54,783 bases of DNA, taken from NCBI GenBank assembly GCA_002315255.1, contig DCGM01000106.1, positions 9,064 through 63,846 of the forward strand, written 5' to 3'. Every line of letters starts with the position of its first letter. The first letter of the stretch is position 1. The position numbers were made by a program, and so were the translations under genes. The DNA comes from Lachnospiraceae bacterium UBA1778 (GTDB lineage: Bacteria > Bacillota > Clostridia > Lachnospirales > Lachnospiraceae). Under the pieces are notes generated by a model. It ran no database searches and was not told the DNA's origin. It worked only from the letters and a program-made list of their open reading frames with translations. Of this stretch, positions 945-32,276 are shown piece after piece.

Positions 945-3900
945 TTATTCCGCCTCCGTGCGGTTCGGATAGTTATTGCTGTCCTGAACCGGCTCGTAGT
1001 AGGTGCTGCGGTTTAAGTTAAAGATATAGCTGTCCTGAGCGACGTTGACGTTGTTAACGACAATGCAGCCCTCCAGACGGTAGTTTCCTGCCGGAAGCTC
1101 ATCTGACTTCACAGCAAGCGTCACATGGTTCTGGCCGTCGCCAGAGGACGTGACTGAGGAACGGTGTGCGTCGAGAATCTCGCTGACTGCCTTTAAGACG
1201 ATCGTCTGGTTCGTGTTCGTCCGCATGCTGACAGTCGACGTGGAGTTCGCCGCCATGATCGCATTGAGAAGCATCGCGCACTCTGCGCGCCAAGCATACT
1301 CGGCTTCTTCATCCGGCATGTTGATGTCAATCGCCGTGATCACATTGTCCTTAATGGAGACTGCGACTTCACCGACGCGCTGCTCATCCTTATAGAGCCA
1401 AGCGGTGAACGGCTGGTTCTCCGGACTGTTGTCATAGACCCACATCTTAAAGGACGCAAGGCCGTCTGACAGGTCGTCTTCGAAGTCGATTCCGTTCGGA
1501 TAAGACATCGTGACGCTGGCCATGCCGTTTGCCGACGGGGTGTACAGTTCGTACTGGCCGGTAGTCGTATTCTTCCGGTACAGACGGTACTGGACGGTCG
1601 TCGAGCTGTTGCCTTCGTTGATGTTACTGTAGCTGGCGTTCGAGGAGATCGTAAGCTTGTCCGTCTTCTTTAAGTCTTCCAGGTTCTTCGAAAGCTGGGT
1701 TTCCTCTGCCGTTAAGCGATAGCCGTAAATCGTTTCAGATTCCAATGAAATCGGAATCGTAAGGCTGGCTACCGGCGAGTTCGCGATATCGAGTCCGTCG
1801 AGCGAACGATAGACGTCGACATGCAGGAAGTAGGTTTCCGTCTCTTCGAAGCTGAAGTCGATCGCATTCGCGAAGTCAAACTTGATGTTGACGTTCGTCA
1901 GACTGGACTGTCCCTCCGGCACGTAGTTGTACATGAACTCATTGTTTGAATCATAGTACGGTACTTCGTATTCGGAGAAGATCGTGCCCATATGATATGA
2001 GCTTCCCTGGTTCTTAAAGAACGGGATACGGTCGAGCGTTTCCGTAGCAATCGGATACGTCAGATTTCCGTAATAGATGTCGGTACCGGTCGGGATATCG
2101 ACGGTATGGACGCCGCTTCTGTCGGTGGAGATACTGTAGACCACTTCCAGATACGGATAGGTGTTATTCATGACGTCGGTCCGGTAGACGTATTCAGACG
2201 GGATCTGGTCGATCAGGCTGACATTTACGATTAACGGCAATGTCTGCGAGAAGGAGTCGACCTTCGCATTCTGCTGAAGACTTAAGACACGGCGCTGTTT
2301 GATTTCGATCCACGGCTGCTTATCGGTAGAAGCCTTATGATCGAGGTAGTAGCTGTCGAAGCGGAACGTCGTTTCGCCGTCCGTATCCGGCATTACCTGC
2401 TCTCTCGGGTCCACGCCTGCGCAGACCTTGATATCCATCGCGCTTCCGAAATCGCCGGACTTCGTATGCGAATAGTTTACAACGAAGAGATACGACTGGA
2501 GGCCTGCGCGGTCATCCGTGACCGTCGTGTCGCCTTTACGGAATGCGTATGTCGTCTCACGGAGAGCGGAGGTTCCGTAATCGTCTACTCCGTCATGAAG
2601 CTGCAGGTTCGGCAGCTGATAGTTGACGGACGGGTCGGAAGCCAAGACGAAATCGCGGAGCGAAATCTTCGTCTGGATATTGCCCTCCCGTGCCGTATAC
2701 GTATAGGTTAAGCCGGTGCTGAGGTCAAGCATCATGATGACGGTTCCTTCCGGAATAGTGCTTAAGAAGCCCGGTCCGTACAGTTCGAAGTAGGTTTCGA
2801 CCTGAAGCGGAAGCGTCTTATAAACCGGATAAGCGTCAATGATGTTTTCGAGCGTTACGCCGCTTGCATTGACATAGGTCGCAACGCCGTCCGTTTCGGA
2901 GAGAAGGTATCCTGTCTCCCTCGTTCCGTCCATATGCTCAACCGTATAGATTTCAAGCTCGCGCCAGTTCTTACCGATCTTTATTCTTTCCGTCTTAATG
3001 ATCGGCTGTCCATCATTGTCATACGCGATACGGTCGATCGCATAGCGGTCGCACGAATAAGCCATTTCGACATATGCGGTGAAGGATGCGTCATCATTTA
3101 ACGGCAGACGGTCTGCATAAGAATAATAGCGGTATCCAAGTCCAGCGAGGAATAACGGCTGATCCGTATCGCCACCGGACGAATAGGTTGCAAGCGTGCT
3201 CTGGTCATAGAGGTGGTCGCCTTCGGTGATCCAGGTGCGCGAGGTGACATTGATCGTCAGGTCGACCTGTACCGGGACGGTAGTCGTCGTCGATAACGGC
3301 CAGTAATGGTCTTTGTCGTGACGTCTGTCGGAAAGGAGATACGTGATTTCAATCATGCTCCACGTATTGTTATCATCCGACTTCGCCATCGTGAAACCGG
3401 TCTGCTCACGCCAGGTCAGGTTGCCGGCGTACTTCGTCTGAATGCCGTCCTCCACGAGATACGACTTGTAAGAGATCTTACGGACATTCTGAAGTGTCGT
3501 ATCCGAGATCGAGGTCTCGTTCTCTTCCGCGTCGGTCTCCACCGTGAAGTGGCCGTTTCCGGTAATCGCTTCGTTCAATGCGGTGAAGTACTCTTCCAGG
3601 TTGAGGAGTCGCGTCTGCGCACTGTCATAGCGGAAGTAACGGAGCTTTCCTTCTTCCGTTTCCATGATGTGGCCGATTTCTTCCAGGCCTAAAACAGTAT
3701 CGGTCAGGATATCACGCGCTTCGAGCGTCTTATCAATGCCGACGCTCTCATAGATGCCGCCATCGGTCGGACGTGTCGTGACGCCCGGATCGAGGACGTT
3801 CCGGATATCCGTCACGCGGATAAAGCGGAAATCTGCGAGGCAGGTTCCTGCCATCACCTGATCGTCGAGACGAATCTCATCATCCCCCCAGAAGTACGCA

Positions 3901-6900
3901 GGGTCGAAGAGATCGCTTCTGTCGTCATAAACATTAATGCCGTAGAAGCCGCCGACTACATTCTCGCCAGGAGTTGCGTCTGTATAACCTAATACCGTTC
4001 CGGCATGTCCGGATTCTGCGCAGATCCGGTTGTCAGTTGCGATGATCTCCGTAAAGTTCAGCTGCATGATTTCCGGAATGCAGAGTGCTTCGGCGCTTCC
4101 GATCAATCCGCCTGCCTTATCTGCAATAATCTCGTTACCGGTGAATTCAGAATCGTCGAGCTGCCATAAATCATCCTGAACGTCGGAAGGATCCGTACCG
4201 TAGCCTGGATTCAGATAAACATATCCGATAAATCCGCCTGCGCTGTCGGTGTTACGATCGTAGGCTATAAAACCGATCTGGGATTCGATCAAAGCAATCT
4301 GATTTCCATAGAAGCCCGATGCATTGAACATACCGATGATGCCGCCGGTATAGTACGCGGTGATATCGGCATTCAGCACTAAAATGTCCGAAAGGACCGG
4401 GACCGGTTTCGCATCTTCTTCCGCATCGTCCGGATATTCGAGCGAGCCGCCCTGCGTCATGATGCCGATAAGACCGCCGGCGTATTCGGCAGCGATTCCG
4501 TGATCGCCATCGGAAGAAATCGCCGGGACATTTACCTGAACATTTGAGATATGCGTCATATTACCGTTCATCACGCCGATGAGGCCGCCGGCGATATCAT
4601 TGCAGATGATGGTCGGATAGACGCTCAGGTTCGAAATCGTATTATAGTCGGTTCCGTCCCAGGAAACAGATCCGAAGAGACCGTTTGCACGATAGTAAAA
4701 ATACGAATCTAACGGTTTCATGGAATAGGTGACAACGGCATTCTGACCGTCGAAGGAAGCTGTAAACTGGCGTCCGTTCGTCCGATACTCGTACGAGCTG
4801 CCGACAGACGTGCTGTCCGTGTCATATGCGCAGTATGCGCCGATTCCTTCGAATACATTCTTATAGCTGACCGTCAGGAACCGGTTCGTCGCGCTGTCGC
4901 GGACAGCTGCGTTCACAGTTCCGGTCAGATTATAGATTCCATTCTCCACAAGCTGATAGACCGTCTTCGAGGTCATCATCTTCGCGATCATCTCGCTGTT
5001 CACGTCTTCATCGGTTCCGATAAAGAACTGAAGCATAAACGGTACGCGGCCGACGGAGTAATCGTACGGGATGACAGCGCCTGCCGTAAGATTATCGCCG
5101 TGTCCTGTAGAACGGCCGAGGCCGTAGGACAGCGTTCCGTTATTGACTGCCAATGCGAGCAGCAGAAGTTCTTTGTTGTTATCAATGGTAAAGATGAAGT
5201 TTCCGTCATCGTCAGTCGTCGAATCGATATGCATTCCGAGGAGATCTGCCGCATAGAGGATATCCGTTCCGCAAACGAGCGGAAGCCGGCTGTTCGCAGT
5301 GCTGTACTCCATGGACGCCGCCGTATCGGTCGTCGTCGGACGGTTATTCATCATTTCATAAGCGCTCTCCGGCTCATCTTCAGGCTCATCTTCAGGCTCA
5401 TCGACAGTCACATCGGCACCAGGCTCCCTTGCATTCAGCACCATCTGATACTGCTCAAAGAGTTCACGGTTACGCTGTAACGTATCTTCAGAACCGTTCG
5501 AAAGGACCGGTTCTTCCGTCGGGGTTTCATCCGTCTCTTCGCTCGATGCTTCCGGTTCGGTTTCAGCTTCCGTAGCGTCTTCGGTTCCGTCTTCGGTTTC
5601 GTCCTCAGTTACGTCTTCGGTTTCGTCTTCGGTTCCGTCTTCCGTTCCGTCTTCGGTTTCGTCTTCCGTCGGCGTTTCAGCTTCCGGTTCGGTCTCCGGC
5701 TCGGTTTCCGGTTCCGGTTCCACGATGACTACATAATAGATTCCGCTGACCTTCTCACGGCTGACGCCGTCATCCGGTGCAACTGAAAGTGCCTTAAAGA
5801 GGATTGCATAAACACCTGCATCTTCAAAGACGACAGTGCCTGCGTTCGTGCCCATCGCGCAGTCCGTAAACTCAGAGAAGTCGCCGCCGTTTACCGCATA
5901 CGCATACTGGTACTTTTCAATGCCGGTCGCTGCTGAGAGTCCGCTGACGGTCAATGTGACCGGATCAAGCGTCTCCGCTGCGGAGCTTTCGGAAAGCGCC
6001 GGCGTATAGCCGTGGCCGTCCACATTAAAGTTTCCGGTGATGTAAGCTTCATCCGCCTGCATCAGGATTGCGCCGTTATAGACGACCGTCTTATAACGAA
6101 GCTCCTGCGCTTCATTTCCGAGCTGGTCAAGCGCGCTGATTTCGACTGTGCAAGCGCCGACGCTCTGCTTTAACGTGAAGCGTGCTGTTCCTGTGGTGGA
6201 AGTCACTTCAGGCGTTCCATTAATGGAAATGACTACACTTGCGACGCCCGCGCCGTCTTCCAGGCCGTTCGCGTCTTTCTTATCCGTCGAGGTGACTTCG
6301 AGAACGGTTGCCTTTTCGAAGAAGAGGCCGCCGGTCAGGATGTTCAAAAGATCCGCGATCGGTTCATCATTGACATCGTAGGTCTCCATCGTAAGGATCG
6401 GGCCTGCATTGTCTTTCTTAAAGGTGAATTCGACATAGGAGGAGCTGTAAACCTGCGCGCCGGTCTTCGCGTAGACGCGGTAGGTTCCCTCTTCCGTAAG
6501 GGTCGCGCTCGTCATGAAGTCATGAAGCGTGCCCTCCGCTCCTAAGCGGTATGCATATCCAATGATACCAGATAACGGTGTCGAATCTGTGTAAGAAGCA
6601 TAAATATCAAGCGAACTTCCGTCCGTCCAGTACGTGCCTTCCGATGCATAGCCGGCGTCGGAAAGGTCCAGCGTCGGAGCGCCCGGAACCGTATGGTCGA
6701 TCGTACCGATTTCTGCGATCGCATACGAATGGTTTCCGGCTTCATCCGTCACATTGAGACGGTAGCTTCCGTTTTCGTAAACGATGAAACTGAAGCTGTC
6801 ATCGCCGATCGTGACGGTCGCGTCAGAGAGCGTCCACGCTTCGTCTTCCAGCGTCTCAACGACTGCAGAAACGAGTTCTGCGCCGCTGATTCCATACGGA

Positions 6901-24900: not shown

Positions 24901-27900
24901 GTCGCGTACGTTAAGTTCAGACTAACGTCTTTCAGACCGGAATTCTTTTCCGTAACATCCATCTCAATCGTCAGGGTGTTAAAGAAGAGACCGCCGGTCA
25001 ATGCATTTAATAAATCCGTGATAAAGCTGTTGTTAAATTTCACGTTCGAGATGACCGGCTTGATCTGGTCAACACGAACCGTATAGTATACCAGGCTGCT
25101 TGACAGGCCTGCGTCTGAAACGAGCCACAGGCAGTAGGTATCTTCAAAGAAGGACGGCTGAGACGGGGTGGACGGAGAAACCGTGACGTCAAGCGTCCAG
25201 GTGCCGTCTGCCATCTCGAACTGGCCTTCGTCATTCGTTGCGCCAAAGAACTGCGGCGTTCTCGTCGGATCGCTCAGTTTGTAACCGTAGAGACGCGTAA
25301 CGCCGAGGTTTTCCACCGTATCGGTGTAGGTGACGCGGATATCGTCTGCGGACCACGGAGCGTTCTCCGTGACTTTACCGCGCGAATACGTCGTGCTGCC
25401 GTCATAAACCGAATTATCGACCGTATGATGCGCTTCAATCGAGAGCGACGGCGTACGGTTATCAACCTTCGGCACGTCAATCGTGGTATCGATGGCGCGC
25501 AGATAATCGCCGCTGTCTACATTGCTGTCATGGACCGAAACCGACCATGCTTTCACGGTATGAATCAGCGACCGCGCGCAGTAATTGTCGCGATACGTAT
25601 AGACATAGCAATGGTTCGTTTCGTCATATCTGCCGTTTAAGTTAACGGTCGTGACCTTCTCATCCGTGCCTTCCATATGGCTGATGGTGAGGCCGAGGAG
25701 CGGAGCAGTCGTATCATAAACAGAAACCTTGAATTCCTTATAAGTCGTGTAAATCGTATTGACATCATCATATAACGGTTCGATGACAATGCGCGGCGCA
25801 GTCGCGTCACGGCGGATCGTGATCGTCGTGTCGGTCACGCGGTCTGCCCAGTCGCGGACAGCGATATAGACCGTATGGACGCCGTTTCCGAGATGGTTGA
25901 CCGGGATCGCATAGTTGCCGTTTCCGTGAAGCGTCATCGAAACATTGTCGAGAACGTTATCACTGTCGATACGGTAAATGATCGATTTGATGCCGGCGCA
26001 GGTATCTGCCGCATAGAAGCTGATATCCGGAATGCCTGCATCGTAAACGCGCCATTCGCCGTATTCACTGGAATTCTTCAGCGTAAGCGTCGGGTCGGTC
26101 ACATCGAGGACATACCATGCGGACGTGACGGTGTCCGCCGTAATCGTCGGGTACTCATAGTAGCTTAAGAGCGACCAGTTGCCGGCCTTATCGAGTGCGC
26201 GTACGAAATAAGCGCCCTTATCGTCCCGGTTCGGACGCGTAAAGACGGTATCATTATAAATCTGCGTCCAGGACGCCTGACCGCGTGAAACGAGGTCCGC
26301 GATCTTCGCTTCCCACTCGGCGCGGGTCGCATACATTACATTCTCTTTAATGTATATATATTCGAGACGTTCAATGCCGGAGCTGACGCTGTTCGAAACG
26401 ACGTCCTGGCCGTGCATGGTGATGGTGAACGGGTTCTTATAGACCGCTTCGCCTTCAATCTTATCGCCGTACGGCTCAGCAGAGTAAGCGTTCGCATACG
26501 TGACGGTCGCGAGCGGCGCCGTCTTATCGATGTTCAGGTTCATTACCCAGGCTTCATTTCCGCCGATCGTCGTAAGGCCGGTCGAAGATTCCTTCAGGCG
26601 GATCTTAATGCTCTGCTTCCGCTCGCCGGTAATCACGAGAGACGACTGCCAGCCGGAGCCTCCGGTGATATCCTCGATCTCATCGTATCCGTTCGTCGGA
26701 ACGATTTCGATGTCGGAATTGAACCACATGTTCGTGCTGACGACATCATAAGTGCCGATGCGGTTTCCGTCGTCATCCAGACGATAGATGATGTAATCAT
26801 TGACAGTTACACGCTTCTTAATGACGTTAACGGTCGCCGGATAAATCCGGATATTATAGTGCGCGAGCGTCTCTTCGTAGCGGTGATCCGTCGGGTCGGA
26901 CGCATAAGCGTTCGTCAGCTCACCGACTGAAATCGTATAGCTGCCGGCCGGAACAGAGCCCGCCGGATAAGTGCCTTCCTGGAGTTCATACGGAAGGACA
27001 ACCGTCGGAGCGCTCAGGCCAAGTGAAGCCCATGCAAGCGTAATATCGTTCCAGATTGTCGCCTCTGCATTGCCGCTCGGCGCGTAAACCGTGCTGTTCG
27101 CGAAGCCGCGGAGACCGGAAATATAGACATTTGAAAGGTCTTCCGGAAGTGACGTGAAGCCGTACCACAGCTCCTGATCCTTCAGATAAATGGTGAGGTT
27201 CGCCTTTGAAACGGTGACCGGAATCACGACTGAGGTCGCAAAATAAGCGCGGTCCTCCGGCTTCGTGATGATAAGGTTCGCCGTACCGATACCGTTAATC
27301 TTAATGTAAAGTTCATTGTCCTTATCATAAGCCAGTTCGATAACATCCGTGCTGTTTCCTTCGATCTCGAGAATCAGCTTCGTGTTCGACCATGCAACCT
27401 CCGAATCGGCAATGCCGACCGCGGAAGCGAGTCTCTTACGCTTCGTCGCATTGTACGAAGAATAGAAGCTTGCTGAGGTGTCTGCGTTGACGAAGTTCCG
27501 GATATTGATCGTGGTGGACATCATCGAATACGTCAGGTTCGACGGAATCGTAACATTTAAGTCCGGATATTCCGCCTTCTCAATCGTAATCGTGCAGGTC
27601 TTATAATCGGTCTTTACCACCGTCTGCGAGACGGATTCGACTGCCTGGACACGGACCGTAAACTCGAAGGTTCCGCTATACTTCGGATAACCTGCGAGGA
27701 CGCCGTTTTCAGTGATCGTAAGGCCGAGATCGCTCGGAAGATATGCATATTTTCCGGCATCATTTTTCGTAACTAACGAATATTTATACGTATTTCCAGC
27801 GCCCCAGGCCGGTCCGATCTGGCGCGTGAAGTAGGTGTTGACGGTTCCGGTAAACTGCGTCTCTTCGCTTCCCCAGATTAAGGAGCTGGAAGCGTCCGTA

Positions 27901-30900
27901 CCCATGTAGAAGATATTTCCGTCGAGGACGGACGGGCAGATGGCCGCGCAATGATCCTGCTCATATTCTGATCCGACAATGTAGAAATTCTTTACATAGT
28001 CTTCCGGAAGGTTTAAAAGCTGAAGAGTTCCCGCTTCGACGATACCGACATAGCCGCCGATAAAGAGAATCCCGCCGTCAGAGAAGTCCGGCGTAAAGAA
28101 GCCGCTGATGCGGACATTGTCAATGACGCTGTCGCCGCCGATCGACATCGATGCGACGAGCGCGGAGTATTCGCGATCCTCACCGGTAGAAACGACATCA
28201 ATACCGTCTGCTTCCGTACGGATGATCATATTCTGCGCGGTAGCGCCCTTAATGACGCCTAAAAGGCTGAAGTTCGAGACGGTGCCGCTCGTTCCGTTCG
28301 TCTTATCGGAAAGCGTAATCGTATGGCCACGGCCGTCAAACGTGCCGCGGAACGGATACGAAACAGAACCCAGACCTAAATAAGCGTCCAGCGTTCCGGC
28401 CGCTTCGCTCTGCGCTGATGCGAGGTTATCGATATAATAGCTTTCAAAATCAAGGTCGGTGATGACGCGGTAGTATGCGTTCATCAGGTATTCGGTAAGC
28501 GCCGAAAGCGCGTTCTGATACTCTTTCTCGTGGCCTTCTACGAGCGTCGGAATCGTCTGCCCGTTGACATAAAGGAGGACCTTTCCGAGCGTCTGGCCGC
28601 CCGTGTGGCTCGCGCTCGCAATCGCGAAAAGCTGCGACGGGGAGTCAATGATGAACGGAGACGCCATCGTGCCGAGGCCGCGGTCTAAAACGTTCGTTGC
28701 CGGGTTTACATGAACGGTTTCATGGCTCATCGTGCCGGCAGTCGTGCCATGCGCTTCCGTTCCCATCACAGCGTCATCGATCTGATAACCGTAGCTGGAG
28801 CCGTCAGCTGCATCATAATAATAGTAAACATTGCCGCTAAGGAGCTGATAGACGAACGATGCGTAATAGTCAGGATCGTTCTCAGAGCCTGTGATTTTGC
28901 GGCCGAGATAAGCATTCGCGCTTCCTGCACTTCCTGCATCCGGGAATGCGACTTTTTCCATTTCAACTAACGTATTCTGTCCGCTGACGCGGCCGATCAA
29001 TGCGTCCGCGATCTGGACGTTTCCGTTGATTGCATTGGCAGGAAGGCTGATATGGATATTTTCCACAGAAAGAGAGCCTTCAGAAATCGAGCCGATGAGA
29101 AGGCCGTTTCCGCGTGCGTCCGAAGTCGTAAAAGCGGAAGTAAGCTCCGCGGTCTTTACGGTTACACCGTTTAATGTGATGTCGGAAACGATCACATTTC
29201 CGCGTTCGACAGCGTCGAGGCCGATATTTCCGGTTCCTTTTCCAATGAGTGCGCCGGAAATCAGTGCGCCAGCATAATAGGAGCCGGCTACTTTTCCTTC
29301 AATCGAGAAGTTCCGGATGGTGACCGTGTCAAAGATCGTCTTTGCTGCGATCGGTCCGAAAAGACCGGAATGATTGTCGCGCTTCTCATAAGCGCTTCCA
29401 AAGTTTGCTTCAGTTCCGTTAAAATAGATATTCGCTGCAGAACCGTCAGGCTTTTCGCCATAGTACGTTCCGCCGATTAACGGCATCGGGTAATAATTCA
29501 TGCCGACCAGCGAGATATCGTTCGCCACCTTGAAGACGGCCGTCTTGATATAATAGATCTTATCGATATCGGTTGCCGTGCTTCCGAGGAAGGACGTGTT
29601 AAAGCATGAAAGAAGATAACGCGCGACAGACGGCATCGCCGCATTAAATGCGGACAGCAGCTGAAGCTGATAAGCATTTGTGATAAGATACGGATTCGCT
29701 TCTGTTCCCTGTCCGCTGATGAACATCGGGCTGAAGGAGGAATAAATCCGCTCTGCTGTGCTGCCGAAGCTGTTCGACAGGAGCGAACCTGACAGGACCA
29801 GGATACCGCCTGCAGGGATTTCGGTGCCGGTATAGTCCCAGGTCGATTTCATTACCTGGCCCGCGATCGTTCCGTAACGGCCTTCGACCGCATCAATGCT
29901 CATGCTTCCGGAAAGCGTCGGCGCGACAGCGGTGATATAAGCTTCCGATGCGTCACCGAAAAGCGTTCCGCTGAAGTCATCCTGATCGGTGCAGGTGATC
30001 GAAGTCCGTGAAAGCGTAATGCCGCTGATGTCGAACCGGCCGCTGGCCTTTCCGGCGATCAGACCGAAGCCGCCTTCTGAAGAGAAGGCGCCGTTAAACT
30101 GGACCGAATCAAAGTCTGCTTCGACGCCGAGGATTTCGCCTGCAAAGCCGCCGGAGATACCGGTCTTCCGTCCGCCGCCTGAAACAGCACAGTTCGAAAC
30201 GTTCATTCTGACCGGGTTATAGGTAAGCGAGACGTTCGAGTTTGCGCGTAAGCCGGTGAAGGTGGAGTTCTTGTAAACACTGTTTGCGTCGTAATGGATG
30301 CTGCCGATCGCGCCGCCGATTCCGAAGGCATTATCATGAGTCGAGCTGACATATCCGGAAATGGTACAGTAGCTGACTGTAAGATCGAGACCAAAGGTAT
30401 CGCCGTAAACGCGGTTCTGCGCCGGAGTGATGATCTGGCCGATCAGACCGCCCGCATAAGAGCCAGAGGACGAAACGGAACGCGAGACTGTGACATTATC
30501 GAAGATAAGAGCGCTCTTCGCCGTCGTGGACGAATAGTCTGCAGAACCGACTAAACCGCCGACGTAAGCCTGGCCGGTAGCGGTGCTCGTGATAGCGACT
30601 GCGCTCGTAATATAAGCGAAAGTGATCGAGGTCGCGACTTCGCCGTCCGTCGGGATTCCGATAGAACCGGCAATACCGCCGGCATATCTGCCCGCGGTGA
30701 CGACCGTTCCCTGTAAGGTGAGATTTGCGAACCATGCATCTCCTGTGATTACGGAGAAAAGACCTACATTGTCCTTTCCGGTCCGCGTGCTCAGTGTGAT
30801 GCTATGCCCTTCCCCGTTAAACGTTCCGGAGAACGGCATATAATAATTGACGCTGTTAAACCAGCCGATCCGCGTAAAGCCGCAGTTCTGAAGGTCAATA

Positions 30901-32231
30901 TTACTGACCAGGCGGAAATCCGATTCCATCAGCTCATTCTGCGTGATTCCCGGGATGAAGCGGTCTAAAAGATCGCGTCTTCCGGAGTTCACAGCTGCTG
31001 CGAAAAGCAGGAAATCCGAGGTTCCGGTCAGGATGAACGGATCAGCTTCCGTGCCGGATCCGGTGATCTGCGTAGGAATCGTGAAATTCCCGAAAAGTTC
31101 GGAATTCTGGACGATATCAATATTCAGTTTACTGTTGTAGAGGTCTTCGAGAAGGACCGTCTGATGATTGACTGAGAAGGTGCAGCTTTCAGCATAGAGA
31201 AGCGCATGGTTCGCATTCGCGCAGACCATGAAGCGCTTGGAAGAATCGGCTGCCGTAAGGAGTCCGCCCTCCGGGAGACGGTTGTTTCCGGAGAACTTGA
31301 TATTGTTTAAGACTGCGGTGCGGCCGATGTAACCGCCGAGGCTGCCGTAGGTACGGGTGTTATTCACCGCGGTATCGACAAACACGCCGGAGAGCTCCAG
31401 GTTAATCGCGCCGCCTGCTTTTCCGTTTACGGTGACTTCGTAGGAACGGAGGTCACCGACGAGGCCGCCCATATAGGTTGCGGCCATTTCCATCTGGAAG
31501 CCTTCTGTCTGCTCGAGACCGGAGTTCCGGATGACCATCGTAAAATCATTCTTTTCGTTATTGATGACTGCGCCGACGAGGCCGCCGACCGCATCCATCG
31601 GCTGGGTTCCGCTGGCCGTAATCGAAACGCTGATTCCGTCGATCACTACCTGCGCGTCCTTCGCGTCGCTTGCAATGACCTGACGCGCGACAGCGCCCCA
31701 ATCGCCATTGAACTGGGTGCCTTTACCGGCTGCCTGTGATTTTTTGTCGTTTGTATTGGAGAAGACGATCTCGCCGTTTTTAATGACTGCGCCTTCGCCT
31801 AAGGTTCCAAAGAGCGGTGCATTGAGGTAAAGCGTGTTTCCGTCTAAATCGAGCTGTCCGTAGAAGCGTCTCTTCGCGTCCGCACCGGAAGCATTCAGCA
31901 TGTCATTGGCGGCAAAAGCGATATAGGTCGCGTTCGTACCGGACGGATCTACCTTAAAGTATTTTCCGACCGTATAGTTATCGATATTCGCCATGTTCCG
32001 ACGAAGCCCAATGAAATCCTCTTCCGATTTCAGAAGATATGCCGTCGCGGCGCTCAGTCCGTCTCCGGATTCAAAGATATACTCGGAGAAGATCTCCGTA
32101 TCCTGAATCTCAGGCGAACTTGCCTCTACATGCATATCGGGAACTGCCGCAAACAGCAGTAAAACAGCCAGCGAAAAACTGACTGCTTTTTTAAGGAATG
32201 ATTGTGCTTTTTGGACTCTGCTTCTACTCAC
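945..32231 (-). CDS. Giant secreted surface protein/adhesin, 10,428 aa (signal peptide; GLUG-motif modules; long Ig-like module array; acidic linker; second GLUG-type module plus unknown C-terminal domain)
   Basis: A single ORF runs 31,287 nt without a stop. It has a GTG start at 32231 with GAAGG 6 nt upstream.
- N-terminus MSRSRVQKAQSFLKKAVSFSLAVLLLFAAVPDMHVEA/SS looks like a Sec/SPase I signal.
- aa ~40-1500: repeated G.GT...P(F/Y).I ... F.G.F(D/N)G.GH.I.L ... GLFG ... (Y/V)(A/G)GG(L/I)(V/I/A)G, the pattern of GLUG-motif adhesin/IgA-protease-like heads.
- aa ~1500-1900: MBG-like segments.
- aa ~1900-8837: modules beginning D.(T/A).P and ending D.AGN (Ig/HYR-like beta-sandwiches), several with Asp-box-like S.D.G.TW.
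- aa 8838-8908: acidic linker.
- aa 8909-10428: another GLUG-type module (IAGGLIGVM, YAGGLIGIM, YTGGIIGMF, SAGGFIGYV, KAGGLIGSA), then ~1000 aa without motifs I recognise.
- The protein ends ...NRTEAE* with no LPXTG, TM, SLH or dockerin pattern. Confidence 0.93.
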   Translation of the reverse strand: MSRSRVQKAQSFLKKAVSFSLAVLLLFAAVPDMHVEASSPEIQDTEIFSEYIFESGDGLSAATAYLLKSEEDFIGLRRNMANIDNYTVGKYFKVDPSGTNATYIAFAANDMLNASGADAKRRFYGQLDLDGNTLYLNAPLFGTLGEGAVIKNGEIVFSNTNDKKSQAAGKGTQFNGDWGAVARQVIASDAKDAQVVIDGISVSITASGTQPMDAVGGLVGAVINNEKNDFTMVIRNSGLEQTEGFQMEMAATYMGGLVGDLRSYEVTVNGKAGGAINLELSGVFVDTAVNNTRTYGSLGGYIGRTAVLNNIKFSGNNRLPEGGLLTAADSSKRFMVCANANHALLYAESCTFSVNHQTVLLEDLYNSKLNIDIVQNSELFGNFTIPTQITGSGTEADPFILTGTSDFLLFAAAVNSGRRDLLDRFIPGITQNELMESDFRLVSNIDLQNCGFTRIGWFNSVNYYMPFSGTFNGEGHSITLSTRTGKDNVGLFSVITGDAWFANLTLQGTVVTAGRYAGGIAGSIGIPTDGEVATSITFAYITSAVAITSTATGQAYVGGLVGSADYSSTTAKSALIFDNVTVSRSVSSSGSYAGGLIGQIITPAQNRVYGDTFGLDLTVSYCTISGYVSSTHDNAFGIGGAIGSIHYDANSVYKNSTFTGLRANSNVSLTYNPVRMNVSNCAVSGGGRKTGISGGFAGEILGVEADFDSVQFNGAFSSEGGFGLIAGKASGRFDISGITLSRTSITCTDQDDFSGTLFGDASEAYITAVAPTLSGSMSIDAVEGRYGTIAGQVMKSTWDYTGTEIPAGGILVLSGSLLSNSFGSTAERIYSSFSPMFISGQGTEANPYLITNAYQLQLLSAFNAAMPSVARYLLSCFNTSFLGSTATDIDKIYYIKTAVFKVANDISLVGMNYYPMPLIGGTYYGEKPDGSAANIYFNGTEANFGSAYEKRDNHSGLFGPIAAKTIFDTVTIRNFSIEGKVAGSYYAGALISGALIGKGTGNIGLDAVERGNVIVSDITLNGVTVKTAELTSAFTTSDARGNGLLIGSISEGSLSVENIHISLPANAINGNVQIADALIGRVSGQNTLVEMEKVAFPDAGSAGSANAYLGRKITGSENDPDYYASFVYQLLSGNVYYYYDAADGSSYGYQIDDAVMGTEAHGTTAGTMSHETVHVNPATNVLDRGLGTMASPFIIDSPSQLFAIASASHTGGQTLGKVLLYVNGQTIPTLVEGHEKEYQNALSALTEYLMNAYYRVITDLDFESYYIDNLASAQSEAAGTLDAYLGLGSVSYPFRGTFDGRGHTITLSDKTNGTSGTVSNFSLLGVIKGATAQNMIIRTEADGIDVVSTGEDREYSALVASMSIGGDSVIDNVRISGFFTPDFSDGGILFIGGYVGIVEAGTLQLLNLPEDYVKNFYIVGSEYEQDHCAAICPSVLDGNIFYMGTDASSSLIWGSEETQFTGTVNTYFTRQIGPAWGAGNTYKYSLVTKNDAGKYAYLPSDLGLTITENGVLAGYPKYSGTFEFTVRVQAVESVSQTVVKTDYKTCTITIEKAEYPDLNVTIPSNLTYSMMSTTINIRNFVNADTSASFYSSYNATKRKRLASAVGIADSEVAWSNTKLILEIEGNSTDVIELAYDKDNELYIKINGIGTANLIITKPEDRAYFATSVVIPVTVSKANLTIYLKDQELWYGFTSLPEDLSNVYISGLRGFANSTVYAPSGNAEATIWNDITLAWASLGLSAPTVVLPYELQEGTYPAGSVPAGSYTISVGELTNAYASDPTDHRYEETLAHYNIRIYPATVNVIKKRVTVNDYIIYRLDDDGNRIGTYDVVSTNMWFNSDIEIVPTNGYDEIEDITGGSGWQSSLVITGERKQSIKIRLKESSTGLTTIGGNEAWVMNLNIDKTAPLATVTYANAYSAEPYGDKIEGEAVYKNPFTITMHGQDVVSNSVSSGIERLEYIYIKENVMYATRAEWEAKIADLVSRGQASWTQIYNDTVFTRPNRDDKGAYFVRALDKAGNWSLLSYYEYPTITADTVTSAWYVLDVTDPTLTLKNSSEYGEWRVYDAGIPDISFYAADTCAGIKSIIYRIDSDNVLDNVSMTLHGNGNYAIPVNHLGNGVHTVYIAVRDWADRVTDTTITIRRDATAPRIVIEPLYDDVNTIYTTYKEFKVSVYDTTAPLLGLTISHMEGTDEKVTTVNLNGRYDETNHCYVYTYRDNYCARSLIHTVKAWSVSVHDSNVDSGDYLRAIDTTIDVPKVDNRTPSLSIEAHHTVDNSVYDGSTTYSRGKVTENAPWSADDIRVTYTDTVENLGVTRLYGYKLSDPTRTPQFFGATNDEGQFEMADGTWTLDVTVSPSTPSQPSFFEDTYCLWLVSDAGLSSSLVYYTVRVDQIKPVISNVKFNNSFITDLLNALTGGLFFNTLTIEMDVTEKNSGLKDVSLNLTYATDDDGEAAEIILSTEENTKNLTSVTNNGNGTYHVAFYVNRTDMERRYEYQGMPEIIATDNVLNESFPYQVNRRVTIDNLDPLFDMDTTEQDWNDNDFWTVEDVYVELTNIHDDGPEEVASGVRYLYWFLSSDDVTDPDVVDTYAGELHRITLRETMDDDFVYSYSFLVTEGDNLTETPNGNYYVACVIEDFMGRRTLHTKHILKDDERPTLNSISLVLSGVDRMEYDGNGHYSLKDNTYAQADDIIYVDVSKADFPQSPLILNVRLVRDGDPSTVYQDFDLLPIDNGTDEPGYLDENGHIIFKYHLPDDLKANNANLNGVYSFTVYAGNCGPEDNGQNYSNTLTFDTEGRMAQFPTSVPVIDADAHTHYTDWTDVIQQIVLSYTEMPGAPERLQYSIINLADGALETLDIYTVENGQMLVKTPENKNRFTNFTDLTNANTWAGNYATNTHTLTVSELETLFPNDGLYAVAFRVCDDNDNYSQHYSMIYLAIDREAPTLTEINFATTPYGTDFPESYDPVIQRDGRTYHFSEDVYADLQAWEVTNNPNYLDFYHPFTTEYSYDGITWQEYNYTAFSFSNENNALYFRSTDYLGHVSTRFASFVTNNKTPGDVVVSYARDNDSRRISEWGSSDIIFTLTGGTTPGMLLDHFEFAWQELDADGNVLPYEEGLFTLDEEGMNWAWLPMTYDSDNNLVWNILNLDGNLPYELDGIYQFYFRAVSNTGNMSAVHIVNSLALKDSKTPQIRTTGTTGVLDGTWTTESASFVVEELTTNKSPVTWFVTINGVRYTLKGTQFTLPSEISTGNGLLYPSWDDTTNTLTLTGDTAHNTPVYFTLMSDAGLYSDSDTYLLSMQQTTDHLRDLTIADIVASVNPTGTIIDGVGGFYQQWYRYVDDYPTFSLKVADQIGNPFYHAETAPISVWYRYENLTTGTVAADDDSTTGSVPLTAGNIADLYELLVDDIVTLTVWLEDEAGNKKDSVTFTAHSDFTNPDEAFVTIENNESSLIDRIMSALVFKWFYQNEERYRTVHLTADCSLSGFESFSYYLYNISDGQIPANLEKPDGFNNSIWTTVTDGTFQIPVNFGGIVFIRVRDNAGNVTVTQTDGTIFENEDPTLQPLAASGGMLNNWYYVDPLITIIAGEDTTDDIPDSGVVSVIYREIRDYGRSTQTTLRELELIDDTFQNSDGVGYYLWQYGINTETQGIFDVEVTVTDRAGNVTTASRHLQVDSHTPDLLIDITTSDGAYPSSDTTYWTEKDVTASFSTPNQVSPLVYAYSIDDGNTWTDIRNASGTAVNSITCSEDFNENVKFRVTTTSGVYQISDAYTIKIQKSFPSSAYGFTNASGNSTYKITYDQQKNSAGWFNDPVNVSLYAPYHILRSGRLQAPVYTDYQLYKDGVAVSGQSGTIVISDPANVPSPTVFHLTEDGIYTLEITVQDETFSRSVTASTTIKLDTTAPTDPVFYIEEENQLRALLNTITFGLLFNNTKTLRVTGNYDISGYKKLEYLRVPVRTAEAKAAIEAMTAAQINAMTSQQWAAIVSDQISWVTPDNESTGELYEDKDFIGVYFARLTDNADNSLIISSNGFIVDIYDALLDSRIDHVIGSKRTTAYEPDRNHTYNDPDYTEDANYRTLSSDQWYRSAVVQFYTYANPSGIDNIKFYNIDYETGEEELIETWTQDSGELQAAMNSLSLYNEPFYGSYPTRVNGRYYVKIVVTDTAGNVYNDMTSQLIQIDNTTPELVITKNVDDIWDEEITNDDGALTGKWTNKTLTFTANYYGLIFNPNGQTVRTQNANIGAKFYYNVNGGDWHLIHADERGRFTLTLDQNTHANYSFMALIGDTSLVEDVETVTDPYDTLATYVVYEGIYVEEPDYGPTSYEVLIQKTAPGEFLDWHHSVAEYSEFLMFKESNDYIPETFPNTAGWYNTQLAFNAYFPAEATALEAPRVTEYKIYKDGVLYPTTVYLKKWDADGQAYYETEETTGEGTWNAEFDFSSTQERVFFEMLDDGYYTIELQTFDATYLYDGRTNGNHNTKKTYTYKVDATDPELVDIRDESQSIIGNLMEALTFGLFYNHQTFTFDVDFDISGRKSLEIYLARQYSGTAFPDTSSTVNEATGDYTWYSLVGTETTYTLEDDFRGVIYVKATDIADNTYSYWTTVGLVTDNSAPDLSLVLSAPGATYNIDGGWDLIIDENNSYGELEPLSLESGDGLWFNRPAEIVMQSRDYEGDLNTLLSLTYTLTRYPDGVANTNKVETTGTIYSTEAYTELQDLGPDPMEEYTMTVSADGLYVLHLVATDRSGNETDAYVTFRVDMSVPSLDESLIYINGTDVTDRYDTGSICLQSIESASISTDAGISGLDRIEYQFYNGTGVSDDAWVVYSAAGLLDDIQTNCQNSIFTIFYRVIDQAGNVLDPDIGSTYSRTIFLDNVAPTVIAVTGIPEYWDSEWNSSDVTLTWYAYDFIEIENDFSGKNSGIEAYSLDGGTTWTEWTYDMDENGLTLTFNANRILQFRLRDYAGNIGDMSNGHDDQSPNVEIKYIDKIAPNATDSKLKIHNISNYTADHYYSTDQTITADFVKTYGTILNGVGSLGTPEWLEYQILTWDETLSEGGWISFSDQFSADALTEHSIVLRAEDYPDTQVKVYFRVRDLLDRTYVIPTPAIVNFDTTAPAFTTDTISYQRVNNDSISRLLNTLTGGLFFNDQVEVTVEINDPSTRTTEDGDENIIAASPLTTLYYKRGLADNVYRSAAITKDATTGLYYASFMVPATTRRINGNDYYYFRGDVSMYAEDSSLNTDVASGNYGRYNRSAVVTLVDFTVDNVPPAAPTLEVTYYDQTADSVVAYPNTTSNWVKWNVTFKISGSEVLSGVKMFQYSTDSGARWNDLEWADEEETYVLFSTSCVSGSNLVEDIIFRAVSYSGMTGTASSAYHIHIDRKDPTALSYEISGEPHEDRWYTEDRMTVKFTQDNFAPVSLGWYMVDENAVNQTYSPLTLTSDGTTRSAEIPLSAGVHTYMFRAEDAAGNVITDSLVVMQDSGVPTTSVAAYFGNSGQESSWKPYPNQSDNYVNYDDYNRVILKLDSYSIAPFNRFEIYRDGVLESTFIASVCNVVAPATVGGVYHATFDYAVPGGNTDGAEYTVKSVTSSSDALADDFGDSFNPTEQNVMFRYDETAPAFGIITYEHVNRSEFDRFLNSISFGLFFNDAVVVSVPFSMELESIGHIGAAFYDFSVALLEKDGAPKFLDPADITVTPVSGSTTAYVAKFQIDPNFEGSIHLFAYDNAGHFQINGSDAAMGTRNEAIMSLADFHVDDVAPVITFSRDSNNQPNSLGWNNIFDNGMRMPDYEYLNNRLCVHVSITEENAGIDNWSYSVTQAGQGVYDFGEYSNTGSGKGETEENIYFYESGIYEISFTVTDRANNTTTETHTVKIDLSEPDLTVTAETLGEDTEDYFGDWTDQDIRITLSLADSVSTNHYFYTTGDPTSASVTWTELAPEADGNVYINFTSDTDLVYSFKATSDAGLDTNTGARGYLPTEKLYYQQTIKLSNSVAAAPTLVVKKFSKETETGDYITDTFINEDVRFYVSVSDTDGNRPFGGARSLLYSTSSDGTNWSNWSSPYSYTGIIGDMTGFVIEQTADYYNETYYRFASVSNSGVVSEISNTWHVLIDKMAPVIDSVKFEIVNDGVVSGILNALTGGLLFGRDIKVTYTYHDEGIAGLKDAEAVLWIDQSDYHLDHAFASRRNMSQSDSFMMSDFTDSTDIQLAAFMEIKLLDYAGNDAYERIGDKEDMFLVDTVVPSAPEVSSDKILGSTIVGSYDGSWTSYNLVYALSGSESMSGIHHYEFQLDGSSEWVTSATVNGFYFNLTTTSQTTITGYGAPVTNVTGAKLTVTAPREADLTTTVKFRAVTNAAIAFNASGAVTSYLAGAETDEFDINIDTRIPQFTVTPDLDTFEDSGWYNERVTYTEEALNTNASGVTYYYYVYGQSAQSFSDGVLLPADGYTLDDDVYFYAESGAGVQSEYFYLGSDEHHTSPLSYIHVKVDALDPSADAPTATPIIGGGTYTEGTYTCETLLINFPEATAFSGIDHYTVETYDLLTDKTYTQTFDPPLSVGLELSGDKNNFYAVTYYSVSGRTLITSIHACVWQSAPALPDVTVTVNNQVVDEWDENWFSEVPSFTVTLPERIATLEDPVTYVHFIIDGVDHILSNEEEVYEYVFDEFEDGHHTIEYYSAFDDEDGLPLIFANEELSFYLDTKYPDITFEATPYSRELLEALSNDMDRFYIYVEEANFAEEPTITASVVKKTVGENGIVEETVTLDPDEFFDVVFDSTEQRYIYSHDFDGVSSEDGVYEFTAYAIDMSGNEVSASTGFEVDYSAPVFEGVQYELINDDVLSGVLAFLTGGMFFNRSILVHETATDPNLNYLYWEYVGIDGQVHFGTVNATDGRAVSAVRLDPQFDGEILFMATDMVANRVSETRYIVLDSKAPSSPDVDMRTGSSFAAGTEYSDDEWTYQDVFMKTSGGLSLSGIKKYQYRKGSDEFTDYEESANGVTVTAQGQYVYEFRAVSNSDLAGASTTKHVNILKSITAPQITVNGHEYDGWYENATIIRLAKTQTLGAEITTLQYSYDNITWEEYDPDCGITPLDGTNRYYARAVAFGGVVMSPVSYLDLTVELHSGNLIYSFTSDGEHYDEGVWVPNPIVATFQFDDTRSSLDRVMYWASDGTVNETVSAENGVVSITITESGEYSFIAFSKCENGSSISYEICYDAYAPDVTNWDFISKDYGLRADYSFYSEDQITLFGESVSLVFTINEIGGSGFDFENSTISYPLLTGGSVSESIEDYLSSDDGENLTFIVPIDDKVGGVITLSYRDNARDDFADYPVTDVRVDIEEPYADIATVRYKKDGVEADYAEGTWVNADRINFIFYGGDNDDLGFASGWCGLIISYNSDDFDFSSCAEGFNGDEYSFWLAGERHIRFRPFDHADHLGEMFDFTICIDRDDPYYTTLPTPMMVPMESGYYVCLIVEEPTSELCDIDIICGETEISDYYVTQLTGDNKIWIIDLFVEYNGVYTVDVTDLAGNHGTTSFEVTNLDFTDPVIGGISFKTADGNDYDNESWTNQSVIVSVDAHDEGTEMPDGTVYQVGLASEAYSFDGGATWQSGNSFLVENNTLLYIAVRDAAGNVTYYNNVCAVMSIDKVDPTINEISRTPSSDDWTSDDVIITVDAEDDASQIKEYSFNGGASWQSSPSKRYTVNTENIIIAVKDVAGNITTYPATLFIRNIDKTTPTIDVNVFDADGNLYVPGTWTSELTFGYVPGVTPISGISYYYKAVPAGQSVPAFDRSTWSELGTATGFDENFSGTLCFIAVTGAEVPSQMVCILANVDPHTPSDPSVSAINAVYTDGDGFPWYDGTQVTFEIALTDTESSSGYTVYRFVDGINDIPATKTGNVYRDTVTLAANAGTGTVTPNYYIKTGAGLTSGTETAKAYVDTEEPSYTTEINIYNTDGTSAFLSALTGGLFFNRKAVLTVSLNDGDNGSGITQSKVEVYDNGTKVAEATGTTSIVLVIPYQLALTGTAEIRVSSIDNVGNSFGDAYSGISSNIAEIDLTNAEAVAYKKNDDNSESAYTLGTPTNTDVIVYLSGASSFAGIDHYEYSYSTDNGTTWSTWASCTGTGSNGSLMITTDGNRKYKFRAASVASYDGTPLTVQYAVLSDILSIYVDKTDPAVTGIDWSEENVTASAVTLTIRAADALSGVSQYAFSNSSTEDGILDSEWGTGNTLTVSANRDGIYVYVKDNAGNVSAYTQNPINVRNIDLVAPQILTTGAYAITKSTTDWTNETVTVTFFVKDSGVAARTVQAIGADDSAYTLSDPTLVSGTTDTYRYTFTVSANDVITLKAHDEANLTDATTTVTISNIDGDGPTIGSVDNSTASLEWTNQNAVLTINATYEGAPITGYSFDGGATWKTANTEMYSANTQNIVVKVMDEAGNVTTYSETLSITNIDKQGAVLQSHSLSRAGWVSDSLTVSIPYGISGAELVSAVVETLEDEAWTLSDATVTIGDDSFSFIVYENGSYRLNVTDEAGNHSYAIAEIGTIDHTVPGAPTLDLSDAGYASEGTYWTDGSSLDIYASYTDSTPLSGIIGYAYRLGAEGTLHDFMTSATLTEEGTYRVYAKTGAQVYSSSYVEFTFKKDNAGPILTMETYDVNDEPIADLLNILTGGLFFEKATVLEVTSTDKKDANGLEDGAGVASVVISINGTPEVTSTTGTARFTLKQSVGACTVEISALDQLGNEAQELRYKTVVYNGAILMQADEAYITGNFNVDGHGYTPALSESSAAETLDPVTLTVSGLSAATGIEKYQYAYAVNGGDFSEFTDCAMGTNAGTVVFEDAGVYAILFKALSVAPDDGVSREKVSGIYYVVIVEPEPETEPETEPEAETPTEDETEDGTEDGTEDETEDVTEDETEDGTEDATEAETEPEASSEETDETPTEEPVLSNGSEDTLQRNRELFEQYQMVLNAREPGADVTVDEPEDEPEDEPESAYEMMNNRPTTTDTAASMEYSTANSRLPLVCGTDILYAADLLGMHIDSTTDDDGNFIFTIDNNKELLLLALAVNNGTLSYGLGRSTGHGDNLTAGAVIPYDYSVGRVPFMLQFFIGTDEDVNSEMIAKMMTSKTVYQLVENGIYNLTGTVNAAVRDSATNRFLTVSYKNVFEGIGAYCAYDTDSTSVGSSYEYRTNGRQFTASFDGQNAVVTYSMKPLDSYFYYRANGLFGSVSWDGTDYNTISNLSVYPTIICNDIAGGLIGVMNGNMTHISNVQVNVPAISSDGDHGIAAEYAGGLIGIMTQGGSLEYPDDAEEDAKPVPVLSDILVLNADITAYYTGGIIGMFNASGFYGNQIALIESQIGFIAYDRNTDSAGGFIGYVYLNPGYGTDPSDVQDDLWQLDDSEFTGNEIIADKAGGLIGSAEALCIPEIMQLNFTEIIATDNRICAESGHAGTVLGYTDATPGENVVGGFYGINVYDDRSDLFDPAYFWGDDEIRLDDQVMAGTCLADFRFIRVTDIRNVLDPGVTTRPTDGGIYESVGIDKTLEARDILTDTVLGLEEIGHIMETEEGKLRYFRYDSAQTRLLNLEEYFTALNEAITGNGHFTVETDAEENETSISDTTLQNVRKISYKSYLVEDGIQTKYAGNLTWREQTGFTMAKSDDNNTWSMIEITYLLSDRRHDKDHYWPLSTTTTVPVQVDLTINVTSRTWITEGDHLYDQSTLATYSSGGDTDQPLFLAGLGYRYYSYADRLPLNDDASFTAYVEMAYSCDRYAIDRIAYDNDGQPIIKTERIKIGKNWRELEIYTVEHMDGTRETGYLLSETDGVATYVNASGVTLENIIDAYPVYKTLPLQVETYFELYGPGFLSTIPEGTVIMMLDLSTGLTYTYTAREGNIQTKISLRDFVLASDPSVNYQLPNLQLHDGVDDYGTSALRETTYAFRKGDTTVTDDRAGLQSYLFVVNYSHTKSGDFGSAMDIKVCAGVDPREQVMPDTDGETTFRFDSYYLDHKASTDKQPWIEIKQRRVLSLQQNAKVDSFSQTLPLIVNVSLIDQIPSEYVYRTDVMNNTYPYLEVVYSISTDRSGVHTVDIPTGTDIYYGNLTYPIATETLDRIPFFKNQGSSYHMGTIFSEYEVPYYDSNNEFMYNYVPEGQSSLTNVNIKFDFANAIDFSFEETETYFLHVDVYRSLDGLDIANSPVASLTIPISLESETIYGYRLTAEETQLSKNLEDLKKTDKLTISSNASYSNINEGNSSTTVQYRLYRKNTTTGQYELYTPSANGMASVTMSYPNGIDFEDDLSDGLASFKMWVYDNSPENQPFTAWLYKDEQRVGEVAVSIKDNVITAIDINMPDEEAEYAWRAECAMLLNAIMAANSTSTVSMRTNTNQTIVLKAVSEILDAHRSSVTSSGDGQNHVTLAVKSDELPAGNYRLEGCIVVNNVNVAQDSYIFNLNRSTYYEPVQDSNNYPNRTEAE
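5508..5720 (-). repeat. Degenerate tandem repeats inside the giant CDS encoding an acidic T/E/D/P/G linker (aa 8838-8908)
   Basis: The translation is EPEPETEPETEPEAETPTEDETEDGTEDGTEDETEDVTEDETEDGTEDATEAETEPEASSEETDETPTEEP. The + strand shows reiterated gtcttcggtttcgtc / gttccgtcttc units. Confidence 0.85.
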
Positions 32232-32248: not shown

Positions 32249-32276
32249 TCTGCCTATCCCGGGCCTTTCCTTACGA
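32249..32276 (-). promoter_or_regulatory. GC-rich stem-loop in the 83-nt spacer between the peptidase-fusion gene and the giant gene
   Basis: Minus-strand RNA CCGGGUCUUU-ucguaagg-AAAGGCCCGG forms a 10-bp stem including one G-U pair. No U-tract follows. It could be a partial terminator, a processing site or a stabiliser that sets the ratio of the upstream operon to the giant transcript. Confidence 0.35.

Follow-up and report, generated by a model that had tools for sequence, protein, structure and literature searches.

A giant secreted protein behind a signal peptidase fusion

The window analysed here is a stretch of 54,783 nt from Lachnospiraceae bacterium UBA1778 (GCA_002315255.1, contig DCGM01000106.1, positions 9,064 to 63,846 of the forward strand), and it contains a single gene for a protein of 10,428 amino acids (aa), referred to below as the giant, directly behind a gene in which a SipW-type signal peptidase is fused to an extracytoplasmic domain. 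The giant is a secreted-looking protein that lacks every anchoring signal recognised by domain libraries. Our reading, which is tentative and to which we assign a probability of roughly 45%, is that it is a Sec-exported acidic fibril belonging to a SipW-dependent extracellular system, in which it would be retained non-covalently by conserved partners. The peptidase-ectodomain fusion, its conserved coupling to the giant and a helix-bearing immunoglobulin-like (Ig-like) domain are new. All genes from 47556 down to 945 lie on the minus strand, and the part of the cluster that leads into the giant is composed as follows (a vertical bar within a motif marks the predicted cleavage position):

36567-37496, minus strand: SipW2, 74.9 bits on TIGR02228
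35911-36570, minus strand: protein D, 219 aa, secreted, with a TYG|WY motif
34036-35754, minus strand: protein E, 572 aa, secreted, with the N-terminal motif SYA|KF
32315-34039, minus strand: SipW3 fusion, 574 aa, 83.9 bits on TIGR02228, directly upstream of the giant
32251-32301, minus strand: spacer stem-loop, -29 kcal/mol, z = -5.4, without a U-tract
945-32231, minus strand: open reading frame (ORF) of the giant, 10,428 codons, GTG start

The giant starts 83 nt downstream of the ORF of the SipW3 fusion and on the same strand, as a preliminary description of this DNA, made from the sequence alone, had stated. The genes for E and the SipW3 fusion overlap by 4 nt, as do those for SipW2 and D. 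Homologues of the fusion are few, and its ectodomain is common to two of them, P0016 (64% identity) and P0017 (32% identity), which are encoded on two independent metagenome contigs, L004 and L005, respectively. The preliminary description had proposed checking whether homologous giant genes are linked to SipW-type genes elsewhere, and the outcome was favourable: in all three known copies of the fusion gene (window, L004 and L005) the giant N-terminus or its homologue follows about 100 nt downstream. Counted with their signal peptides, these homologues are 55% identical to the giant over 1,455 aa in L004 and 29% identical over ~950 aa in L005. Furthermore, L005 keeps the whole block sipW2-D-E-sipW3 fusion-giant, with homologues of D (41% identity, E=2e-40) and E (27% identity, E=1e-33) at the same positions. 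Since this gene order is preserved at about 30% protein identity, we argue that the genes are functionally coupled, and the conserved neighbours suggest that the giant may be processed or held in a sortase-independent manner.

No terminator-like site was found in the 83-nt spacer between fusion and giant. Its stem-loop recurs at the same place in L004 (~1705-1760), with different stem bases and conserved flanks, and a similar one lies in L005 (~5920-5965); it could be an element of mRNA processing or stability, or a leaky attenuator.

The fusion itself consists, in this order, of the peptidase, a second transmembrane (TM) segment (TM2), a short basic loop, a signal-peptide-like TM3, an ectodomain of ~330 aa and an acidic PT/E tail. 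In the fusion alignment S58, H96 and D117 are invariant, the catalytic serine lying in the motif SGSMEP, and TM3 carries an invariant AP-x-x-TE-[AG]-KY. The ectodomain appears beta-rich in a low-confidence AlphaFold2 (AF2) model built from a 3-sequence alignment (mean predicted local distance difference test score, pLDDT, 42.8), which is the sole source of that assignment. Together with SipW1 further upstream, SipW2 and SipW3 are signal peptidases I of the archaeal/endoplasmic reticulum (ER) type, for which TIGR02228 has a cut-off of 51.85 bits. On NF046067, the equivalog model of Bacillus SipW with a cut-off of 190 bits, the three peptidases score 62-110 bits, which makes them the same type of enzyme and not the Bacillus orthologue.

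Export signal and absence of known anchors

Judged by eye from its n-, h- and c-regions, the N-terminus of the giant, MSRSRVQKAQSFLKKAVSFSLAVLLLFAAVPDMHVEA|SS, is a Sec-type signal peptide, in which the n-region is basic, the h-region spans 16 residues, a helix-breaking Pro is present and V-x-A occupies -3/-1. It occupies the following position:

32121-32231, minus strand: signal peptide of the Sec type (aa 1-37), with cleavage predicted at VEA|SS, conserved in L004 and L005

The cleavage site is kept among the giant and its homologues (VEA|S, VEA|S, AYA|S). At the other end the protein reads ...NRSTYYEPVQDSNNYPNRTEAE, without a hydrophobic segment or a basic tail, and regular expressions for LPxTG, NPxTG, LAxTG and similar motifs found no LPXTG-like motif anywhere in the giant. 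The signal peptide is the sole hydrophobic 19-mer above 1.7 on the Kyte-Doolittle scale, so that the giant has no second TM segment.

Domain models were searched with Pfam at E<=0.01 over the whole giant, relaxed to E<=1 in two segments (aa 1-1500 and aa 5929-7428), and with NCBIfam at E<=0.05 over aa 1-10,000. Neither library returned a match to SLH, CW_binding/choline-binding, dockerin, LysM, SH3, GW, CWB2 or WxL modules, and the Pfam result includes the last 1,500 aa. DUF5776 was likewise without a match in Pfam, and the Ca-binding motif DxDxDG was not found in the giant. No 100-residue window of the protein has a net charge above +4; it is uniformly acidic, without the basic character typical of wall-binding modules. 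Domain searches of the ORFs of the 55-kb window detected no sortase domain. With these results the picture drawn in the preliminary description, of a protein with a normal Sec signal peptide, without an LPXTG sorting signal, TM segment or SLH, choline-binding or dockerin repeats, and without a sortase gene in the window, is borne out in each part. A lone HExxH at aa 1170 was considered for a catalytic role and set aside, as it is not conserved in L004.

Integrity of the giant gene

The gene is one intact ORF of 31,287 nt, and the mass of its product, put at ~1.1 MDa beforehand, is computed as 1,146,526 Da (1.147 MDa), with an isoelectric point of 4.18. A GAAGG Shine-Dalgarno sequence lies 7 nt upstream of the GTG, and the opening GTG-AGT-AGA recurs in the closest homologue (L004). 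Because the frame runs for 31.3 kb without a stop codon, a chance ORF is practically excluded. The DNA comes from a metagenome-type assembly, in which an artefact or a chimeric join might have yielded a spuriously long ORF. We regard this as highly improbable, not only because of the uninterrupted frame, but also because long DNA repeats that could be mis-joined are absent from the gene and both ends are collinear with independent homologues, the order of Ig array, acidic linker and C-terminal module being common to other family members. GC content and GC content at third codon positions are even along the whole gene, a 12-nt period in the acidic linker (5508-5720) is its only repeat at the DNA level, and the internal protein repeats are mutually 22-38% identical; for these reasons repeat-driven misassembly in particular is excluded for practical purposes. 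The earlier statements that the repeats are strongly diverged at the nucleotide level, and that this divergence argues against an assembly artefact, therefore stand.

Domain architecture of the giant

Behind the signal peptide the giant is composed of a head, a long stalk, a linker and a C-terminal module:

27822-32120, minus strand: N-terminal head, spanning aa 38-1470, in which GGL[VI]G (GLUG-like) units recur and three modules start with G-x-G-T-x-x-x-P-[FY]-I-[IL]
5721-27821, minus strand: stalk, aa 1471-8837, in which [IV]D-x-T-x-P linkers connect roughly 60 diverged Ig-like domains of the beta-sandwich kind
~6400-25070, minus strand: ten Ig-like domains of the LLNxLTGGLFFN type, with first residues at aa 2387, 3426, 3890, 4476, 5096, 5597, 6092, 6795, 7907 and 8606
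5508-5720, minus strand: acidic low-complexity T/E/D/P linker, aa 8838-8908 (71 residues), the only tandem repeat of the gene at the DNA level
948-5507, minus strand: C-terminal module, aa 8909-10428 (~1,520 aa), with five GLUG-like motifs (aa 9215-9374) followed by ~1,050 aa without a recognisable domain
984-1028, minus strand: terminal motif YIFNLNRSTYYEPVQ, with a short tail of variable sequence between it and the stop codon

The head is called GLUG-like because its aa 427-643 can be aligned (31% identity, E=3e-8) with the GLUG repeats of P0006, a protein that itself scores 129.7 bits on the Pfam GLUG model PF07581, even though that model gives no score on the giant. The head, of ~1,430 aa, is probably beta-helical.

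In the stalk about 50 [IV]D-x-T-x-P linkers, 90-140 aa apart, mark off the Ig-like domains. Matches of library models to them are weak: the OmpL47-type model NF047446 reaches 47.3 bits against a cut-off of 40, Big_3_2 reaches 24.5 against 23.3, and Big_13 stays below its cut-off. Iterative in-house hidden Markov models (HMMs) collected ~30 mutually related stalk domains and, in addition, the 10 of the distinctive LLNxLTGGLFFN type, which open with a hydrophobic segment, are spaced by 450-1,100 aa and are found in P0045, P0053 and L003 as well.

The tail of the SipW3 fusion (32315-32480, minus strand; STEDSTEDSTEDPTDEETEEPT...) is likewise acidic and made up of S/T/E/D/P, resembling the linker of the giant at 5508-5720; the homologues of the fusion in L004 and L005 lack this tail.

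No Pfam family was found for the C-terminal module. Its terminal motif has the family-wide consensus [YF]FIFN[VL]N[KR]xxx[YF][DE]P[IV]Q and resembles a domain's final beta-strand; the AF2 model of the C-terminal 389 aa, built from a 2-sequence alignment, is unusable (mean pLDDT 36.0).

A rare protein family

A word-indexed search of 5.8 billion proteins returned one homologue of the C-terminal module, P0001 (E=1.3e-93), and when the last 1,200 aa were run with HMMER exhaustively against 1.84 billion cluster representatives, 19 proteins came up, 17 of them at E<=1e-10. In relatives of sufficient length the match reaches to the C-terminus of the protein. Of two metagenome scans the first gave none and the second a further C-terminal family member, L010. 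P0053 repeats the order of Ig array, acidic linker and C-terminal module. The 1,974-aa P0001 is a truncated gene call, namely the tail of an ORF of >5,300 aa in GCA_002314565.1 (L003, DCGL01000116.1, 1-15925), whose frame is open across an N-gap and beyond the retrieved DNA, so that this metagenome-assembled genome also encodes a giant, split by annotation. Along this ORF, Ig domains of the LLNxLTFGWFFN type are followed by MBG-like repeats and then by the C-terminal module.

The N-terminal 1,500 aa of the giant gave only GLUG-level matches in the indexed protein database, and two scans of 185,579 species-representative genomes, one with the alignment of the giant N-terminus and one with that of the fusion ectodomain, found no relatives. 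To judge from these searches, the C-terminal module and the family defined by it appear to be new and very rare.

The upstream cluster and the flanking genes

The block next to the giant lies within a larger cluster of SipW-type signal peptidases and of small, beta-rich proteins that are secreted. Apart from the block, the window contains the following features:

3-884, minus strand: TM and CHASE2 sensor gene, cut by the window edge, downstream of the giant
37342-39786, minus strand: 814-aa protein whose N-terminal 300 aa are related to a DUF2357-bearing protein (PF09823, L007), with a long K/E-rich coiled-coil-like tail
39796-41538, minus strand: membrane-anchored McrB-like AAA_5 protein, 580 aa, 42% identical to its counterpart in L007
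41679-42467, minus strand: SipW1, 262 aa, 92.9 bits on TIGR02228
42544-43800, minus strand: secreted protein C
43797-44867, minus strand: secreted protein B, paralogous to C
45248-46237, minus strand: secreted protein A, paralogous to C and B
46354-47556, minus strand: secreted protein F, paralogous to A, B and C
47570-48988, minus strand: HD-GYP (HD_5) and EAL protein, putative cyclic di-GMP (c-di-GMP) phosphodiesterase, in the upstream flank
50638-54783, minus strand: MBG-repeat surface protein, open to the window end and longer than the listed 1,321 aa

Common to the paralogues A, B, C and F are two motifs, SFA|W[FY]T at the N-terminus and IWLEGQDxDC at the C-terminus. Directly after gene A, at 45093-45121 on the minus strand, lies a strong terminator-like hairpin of 11-12 bp with 8 GC pairs, followed by TTTTTT, a pattern that would be expected if a major subunit were highly expressed, with read-through into the remaining cluster. 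The listed ORF of SipW2 overlaps the preceding gene by 155 nt and opens with RRKWKSRTKRRKRKRRRRG, which is extremely basic; the 240-aa homologue in L005 indicates that translation probably begins instead at the internal ATG at 37361 (264 aa, MNCSKSKKEKK...).

The McrBC-like pair (39796-41538 and 37342-39786) is an unexpected constituent of a cluster of surface proteins. PADLOC assigned the AAA protein only to the candidate system PDC-M26A, with a match confined to the ATPase core, and this was not taken as evidence of a role in defence. The CHASE2 gene and the HD-GYP and EAL gene, which flank the cluster, suggest that it is under second-messenger control; a search for Rfam families, including c-di-GMP riboswitches, found none anywhere in the window. 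The MBG-repeat protein ends in a TM helix and a KKKK tail, not in LPXTG. MBG-like repeats form part of the giant homologue in L003, but belong to a separate gene in the window, and no similarity of the giant to the MBG protein or to any protein of the cluster was found.

The cleavage sites of proteins A to F conform to the -3/-1 rule, and behind each comes an aromatic residue or a Lys-aromatic pair. In this they are comparable to TasA, which is cleaved at TWA|AF, that is, at a small-x-small site followed by an aromatic residue. The preliminary description had gone further and taken the cluster for peptidase and fibre genes of a TasA-like kind, which did not hold beyond this N-terminal motif. 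None of the secreted proteins of the cluster matched the TasA/camelysin family (Peptidase_M73 PF12389, TIGR04088-type and other NCBIfam models). An hhalign comparison of a 7-sequence profile with TasA aligned the signal peptide only, at a probability of 2%, and an hmmsearch of the PDB with these proteins gave nothing significant. Two archaeal pilin chains (E=2.9 and 5.3) were treated as chance matches of hydrophobic N-termini. The term TasA-like fibre genes is therefore to be read as an analogy, not as membership of the family.

Comparison with known systems

In Bacillus subtilis tapA-sipW-tasA and Clostridium perfringens sipW-bsaA, the peptidase encoded in the operon processes the secreted matrix or fibre proteins encoded with it (PMC7395162). 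As in those operons, an archaeal/ER-type signal peptidase I is encoded here together with secreted proteins, and surface retention would not involve a sortase. In contrast to them, the present cluster has three peptidases, one of which is fused to an extracytoplasmic domain, it contains McrB-like AAA and DUF2357-related proteins, and its block ends in a 1.15 MDa protein that has no counterpart there.

The proteins Giant1-5 of Apilactobacillus kunkeei share with the giant a Sec signal peptide, a very long array of strongly imperfect repeats and a C-terminal segment that is conserved, and LPXTG or sortase is not mentioned for them (PMC12863079). They differ in that their C-terminal domains are DUF5776, their repeats are 62 aa long and a linkage to SipW is not described (PMC12863079), whereas the giant of the window has GLUG-like modules at both ends and Ig-like repeats. 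GLUG surface proteins (PF07581), such as P0008 with GLUG and SLH and P0006 with GLUG and fn3, resemble the giant in having GGL[VI]G units after GxGTxxxPYxI starts, but relatives among them carry known anchors such as SLH, which the giant lacks. The sortase-anchored giant adhesins (Ebh, SasG/Aap, Bap-type and the serine-rich repeat proteins, SRRPs) also combine a signal peptide with a long beta-sandwich stalk and a presumed role in adhesion or biofilm formation; unlike them, the giant has no LPXTG, hydrophobic segment or charged tail, and its repeats are far more diverged. Like the giant genes of Omnitrophota and further uncultured bacteria (bioRxiv 10.1101/2023.11.21.568195), whose products exceed 10,000 aa, it belongs to a class that is mainly metagenomic and often fragmented in assemblies. 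The sequences are unrelated, however, and for those giants predation and cell-wall degradation are proposed, with no SipW context (bioRxiv 10.1101/2023.11.21.568195). Overall, the giant resembles other giant beta-sandwich surface proteins and is an Ig-like repeat protein, with NF047446 and Big_3_2 above their curated cut-offs, and by the searches made here it falls outside the LPXTG, wall-binding, TasA/camelysin and DUF5776 groups.

A candidate mechanism and its alternatives

According to the mechanism that we propose, the giant would be exported via Sec and its signal peptide removed, possibly by the SipW-type peptidase encoded just upstream. It would then serve as a long-reach adhesin or as a matrix component of the SipW-dependent system, held non-covalently by the membrane-tethered ectodomain of the SipW3 fusion and/or by the proteins D and E, and neither a sortase nor wall-binding repeats would play a part in its retention. 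Counted in favour of this reading are the intact ORF with its conserved signal peptide, the missing anchors, the Ig-like stalk and GLUG-like head, the conserved C-terminal module, the preserved gene order, the identity of the peptidases, the company that their relatives keep with proteins matching Peptidase_M73 (weakly), SpaA_2 or SdrD_B, and the signalling genes on both flanks. We infer, as the preliminary description did, the display, anchoring or assembly of the giant by the cluster, as well as its cleavage by SipW, its contact with the partners, its orientation and its role in adhesion or in the matrix. In a more specific form, which we consider unlikely, the block sipW2-D-E-sipW3::ectodomain-giant would be an undescribed sortase-independent display pathway, in which the fusion peptidase would process the fibril and also serve as its tether, to the membrane or else to a TasA-like fibre. 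The tether could for example be strand complementation with the conserved N-terminal F-x-EY-x-F segment or the C-terminal FIFNVN strand of the giant, and the McrB-like AAA protein and its DUF2357-related partner might control the pathway.

Several points weigh against a giant that is processed and retained by the SipW system. The physical link between it and any protein of the cluster is one that we infer, and the secreted proteins of the cluster fail the TasA/camelysin models. The mature N-terminus of the giant, SSPEIQ..., does not have the aromatic residues that occur at +1/+2 (W[FY], K[YF]) in the remaining putative substrates of SipW, and since these are missing, a housekeeping signal peptidase may process it. 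In L004 and L005 the ORFs downstream of the fusion run off the contig ends, so that the size of a giant there is unproven, and for L003, the only other long family member, the upstream context lies outside the retrieved DNA. Moreover, the comparable giant proteins of A. kunkeei occur free in the culture supernatant (PMC12863079).

A further point of this kind comes from the more distant extended SipW proteins, which occur in rumen and other metagenome clusters, none of which has a giant. Some of them combine AWF...WIEGQD proteins like those of the window with the same AAA/DUF2357 pair (42% and 25% identity; in distant rumen metagenome organisms, L007 4463-7131) and a 1,055-aa GLUG/Ig protein, and in others proteins with weak Peptidase_M73 matches or with SpaA_2 or SdrD_B matches stand beside SipW relatives. 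Because this wider cluster type occurs without a giant, the giant is an add-on in one sub-lineage and not the reason for the cluster. The 1,055-aa GLUG protein (L006) was considered as a miniature of the giant and dismissed, as no relation between the two was detectable.

Among the alternatives to non-covalent retention by the cluster, it is possible, if doubtful, that the giant serves as a matrix or scaffold protein which is set free after export, like the giant proteins of A. kunkeei, has no dedicated anchoring and shares only its regulation with the neighbouring fibre or matrix genes. The searches described above found no anchor of any kind, the uniformly acidic protein has no basic region of the wall-binding sort, and the nearby c-di-GMP-type genes fit the regulation of a matrix. 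However, that the exact block sipW2-D-E-fusion-giant is kept down to ~30% identity suggests more than shared regulation, and the type of ectodomain carried by the fusion is found only beside giant homologues.

The linkage might also concern processing only, with the giant anchored, or its FIFNVN...PIQ end recognised, by a system encoded elsewhere, for instance by an unlinked enzyme that is sortase-like or processes C-termini in another way. Conservation within the family is highest in the motif at the extreme C-terminus, and the window spans only 55 kb of the genome, both of which would fit such a system. To our knowledge, every known C-terminal sorting signal (LPXTG, PEP-CTERM, PGF-CTERM and similar) has a hydrophobic segment or charged tail, whereas nothing of the kind follows this motif, and its resemblance to the last beta-strand of a domain likewise makes recognition by a sorting enzyme quite unlikely. 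An uncleaved signal peptide could hold the fibril as a membrane signal-anchor, given that it is the only hydrophobic segment of the giant. Its h-region is merely ~16 residues long, however, a Pro and a canonical small-x-small site conserved in homologues follow it, and a membrane tether would need to cross the wall, so that we regard a signal-anchor as very unlikely.

Implications

Little is understood of how Gram-positive-type bacteria hold very large adhesins if they use neither sortase nor SLH or choline-binding modules, and in the present case domain libraries are blind to nearly all of a 1.15 MDa protein. The comparison with gut and rumen metagenomes also describes a wider, hitherto unannotated type of SipW cluster. 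Within it, the coupling of the giant with the fusion, D and E across ~30% identity provides a concrete and testable candidate mechanism for such retention.

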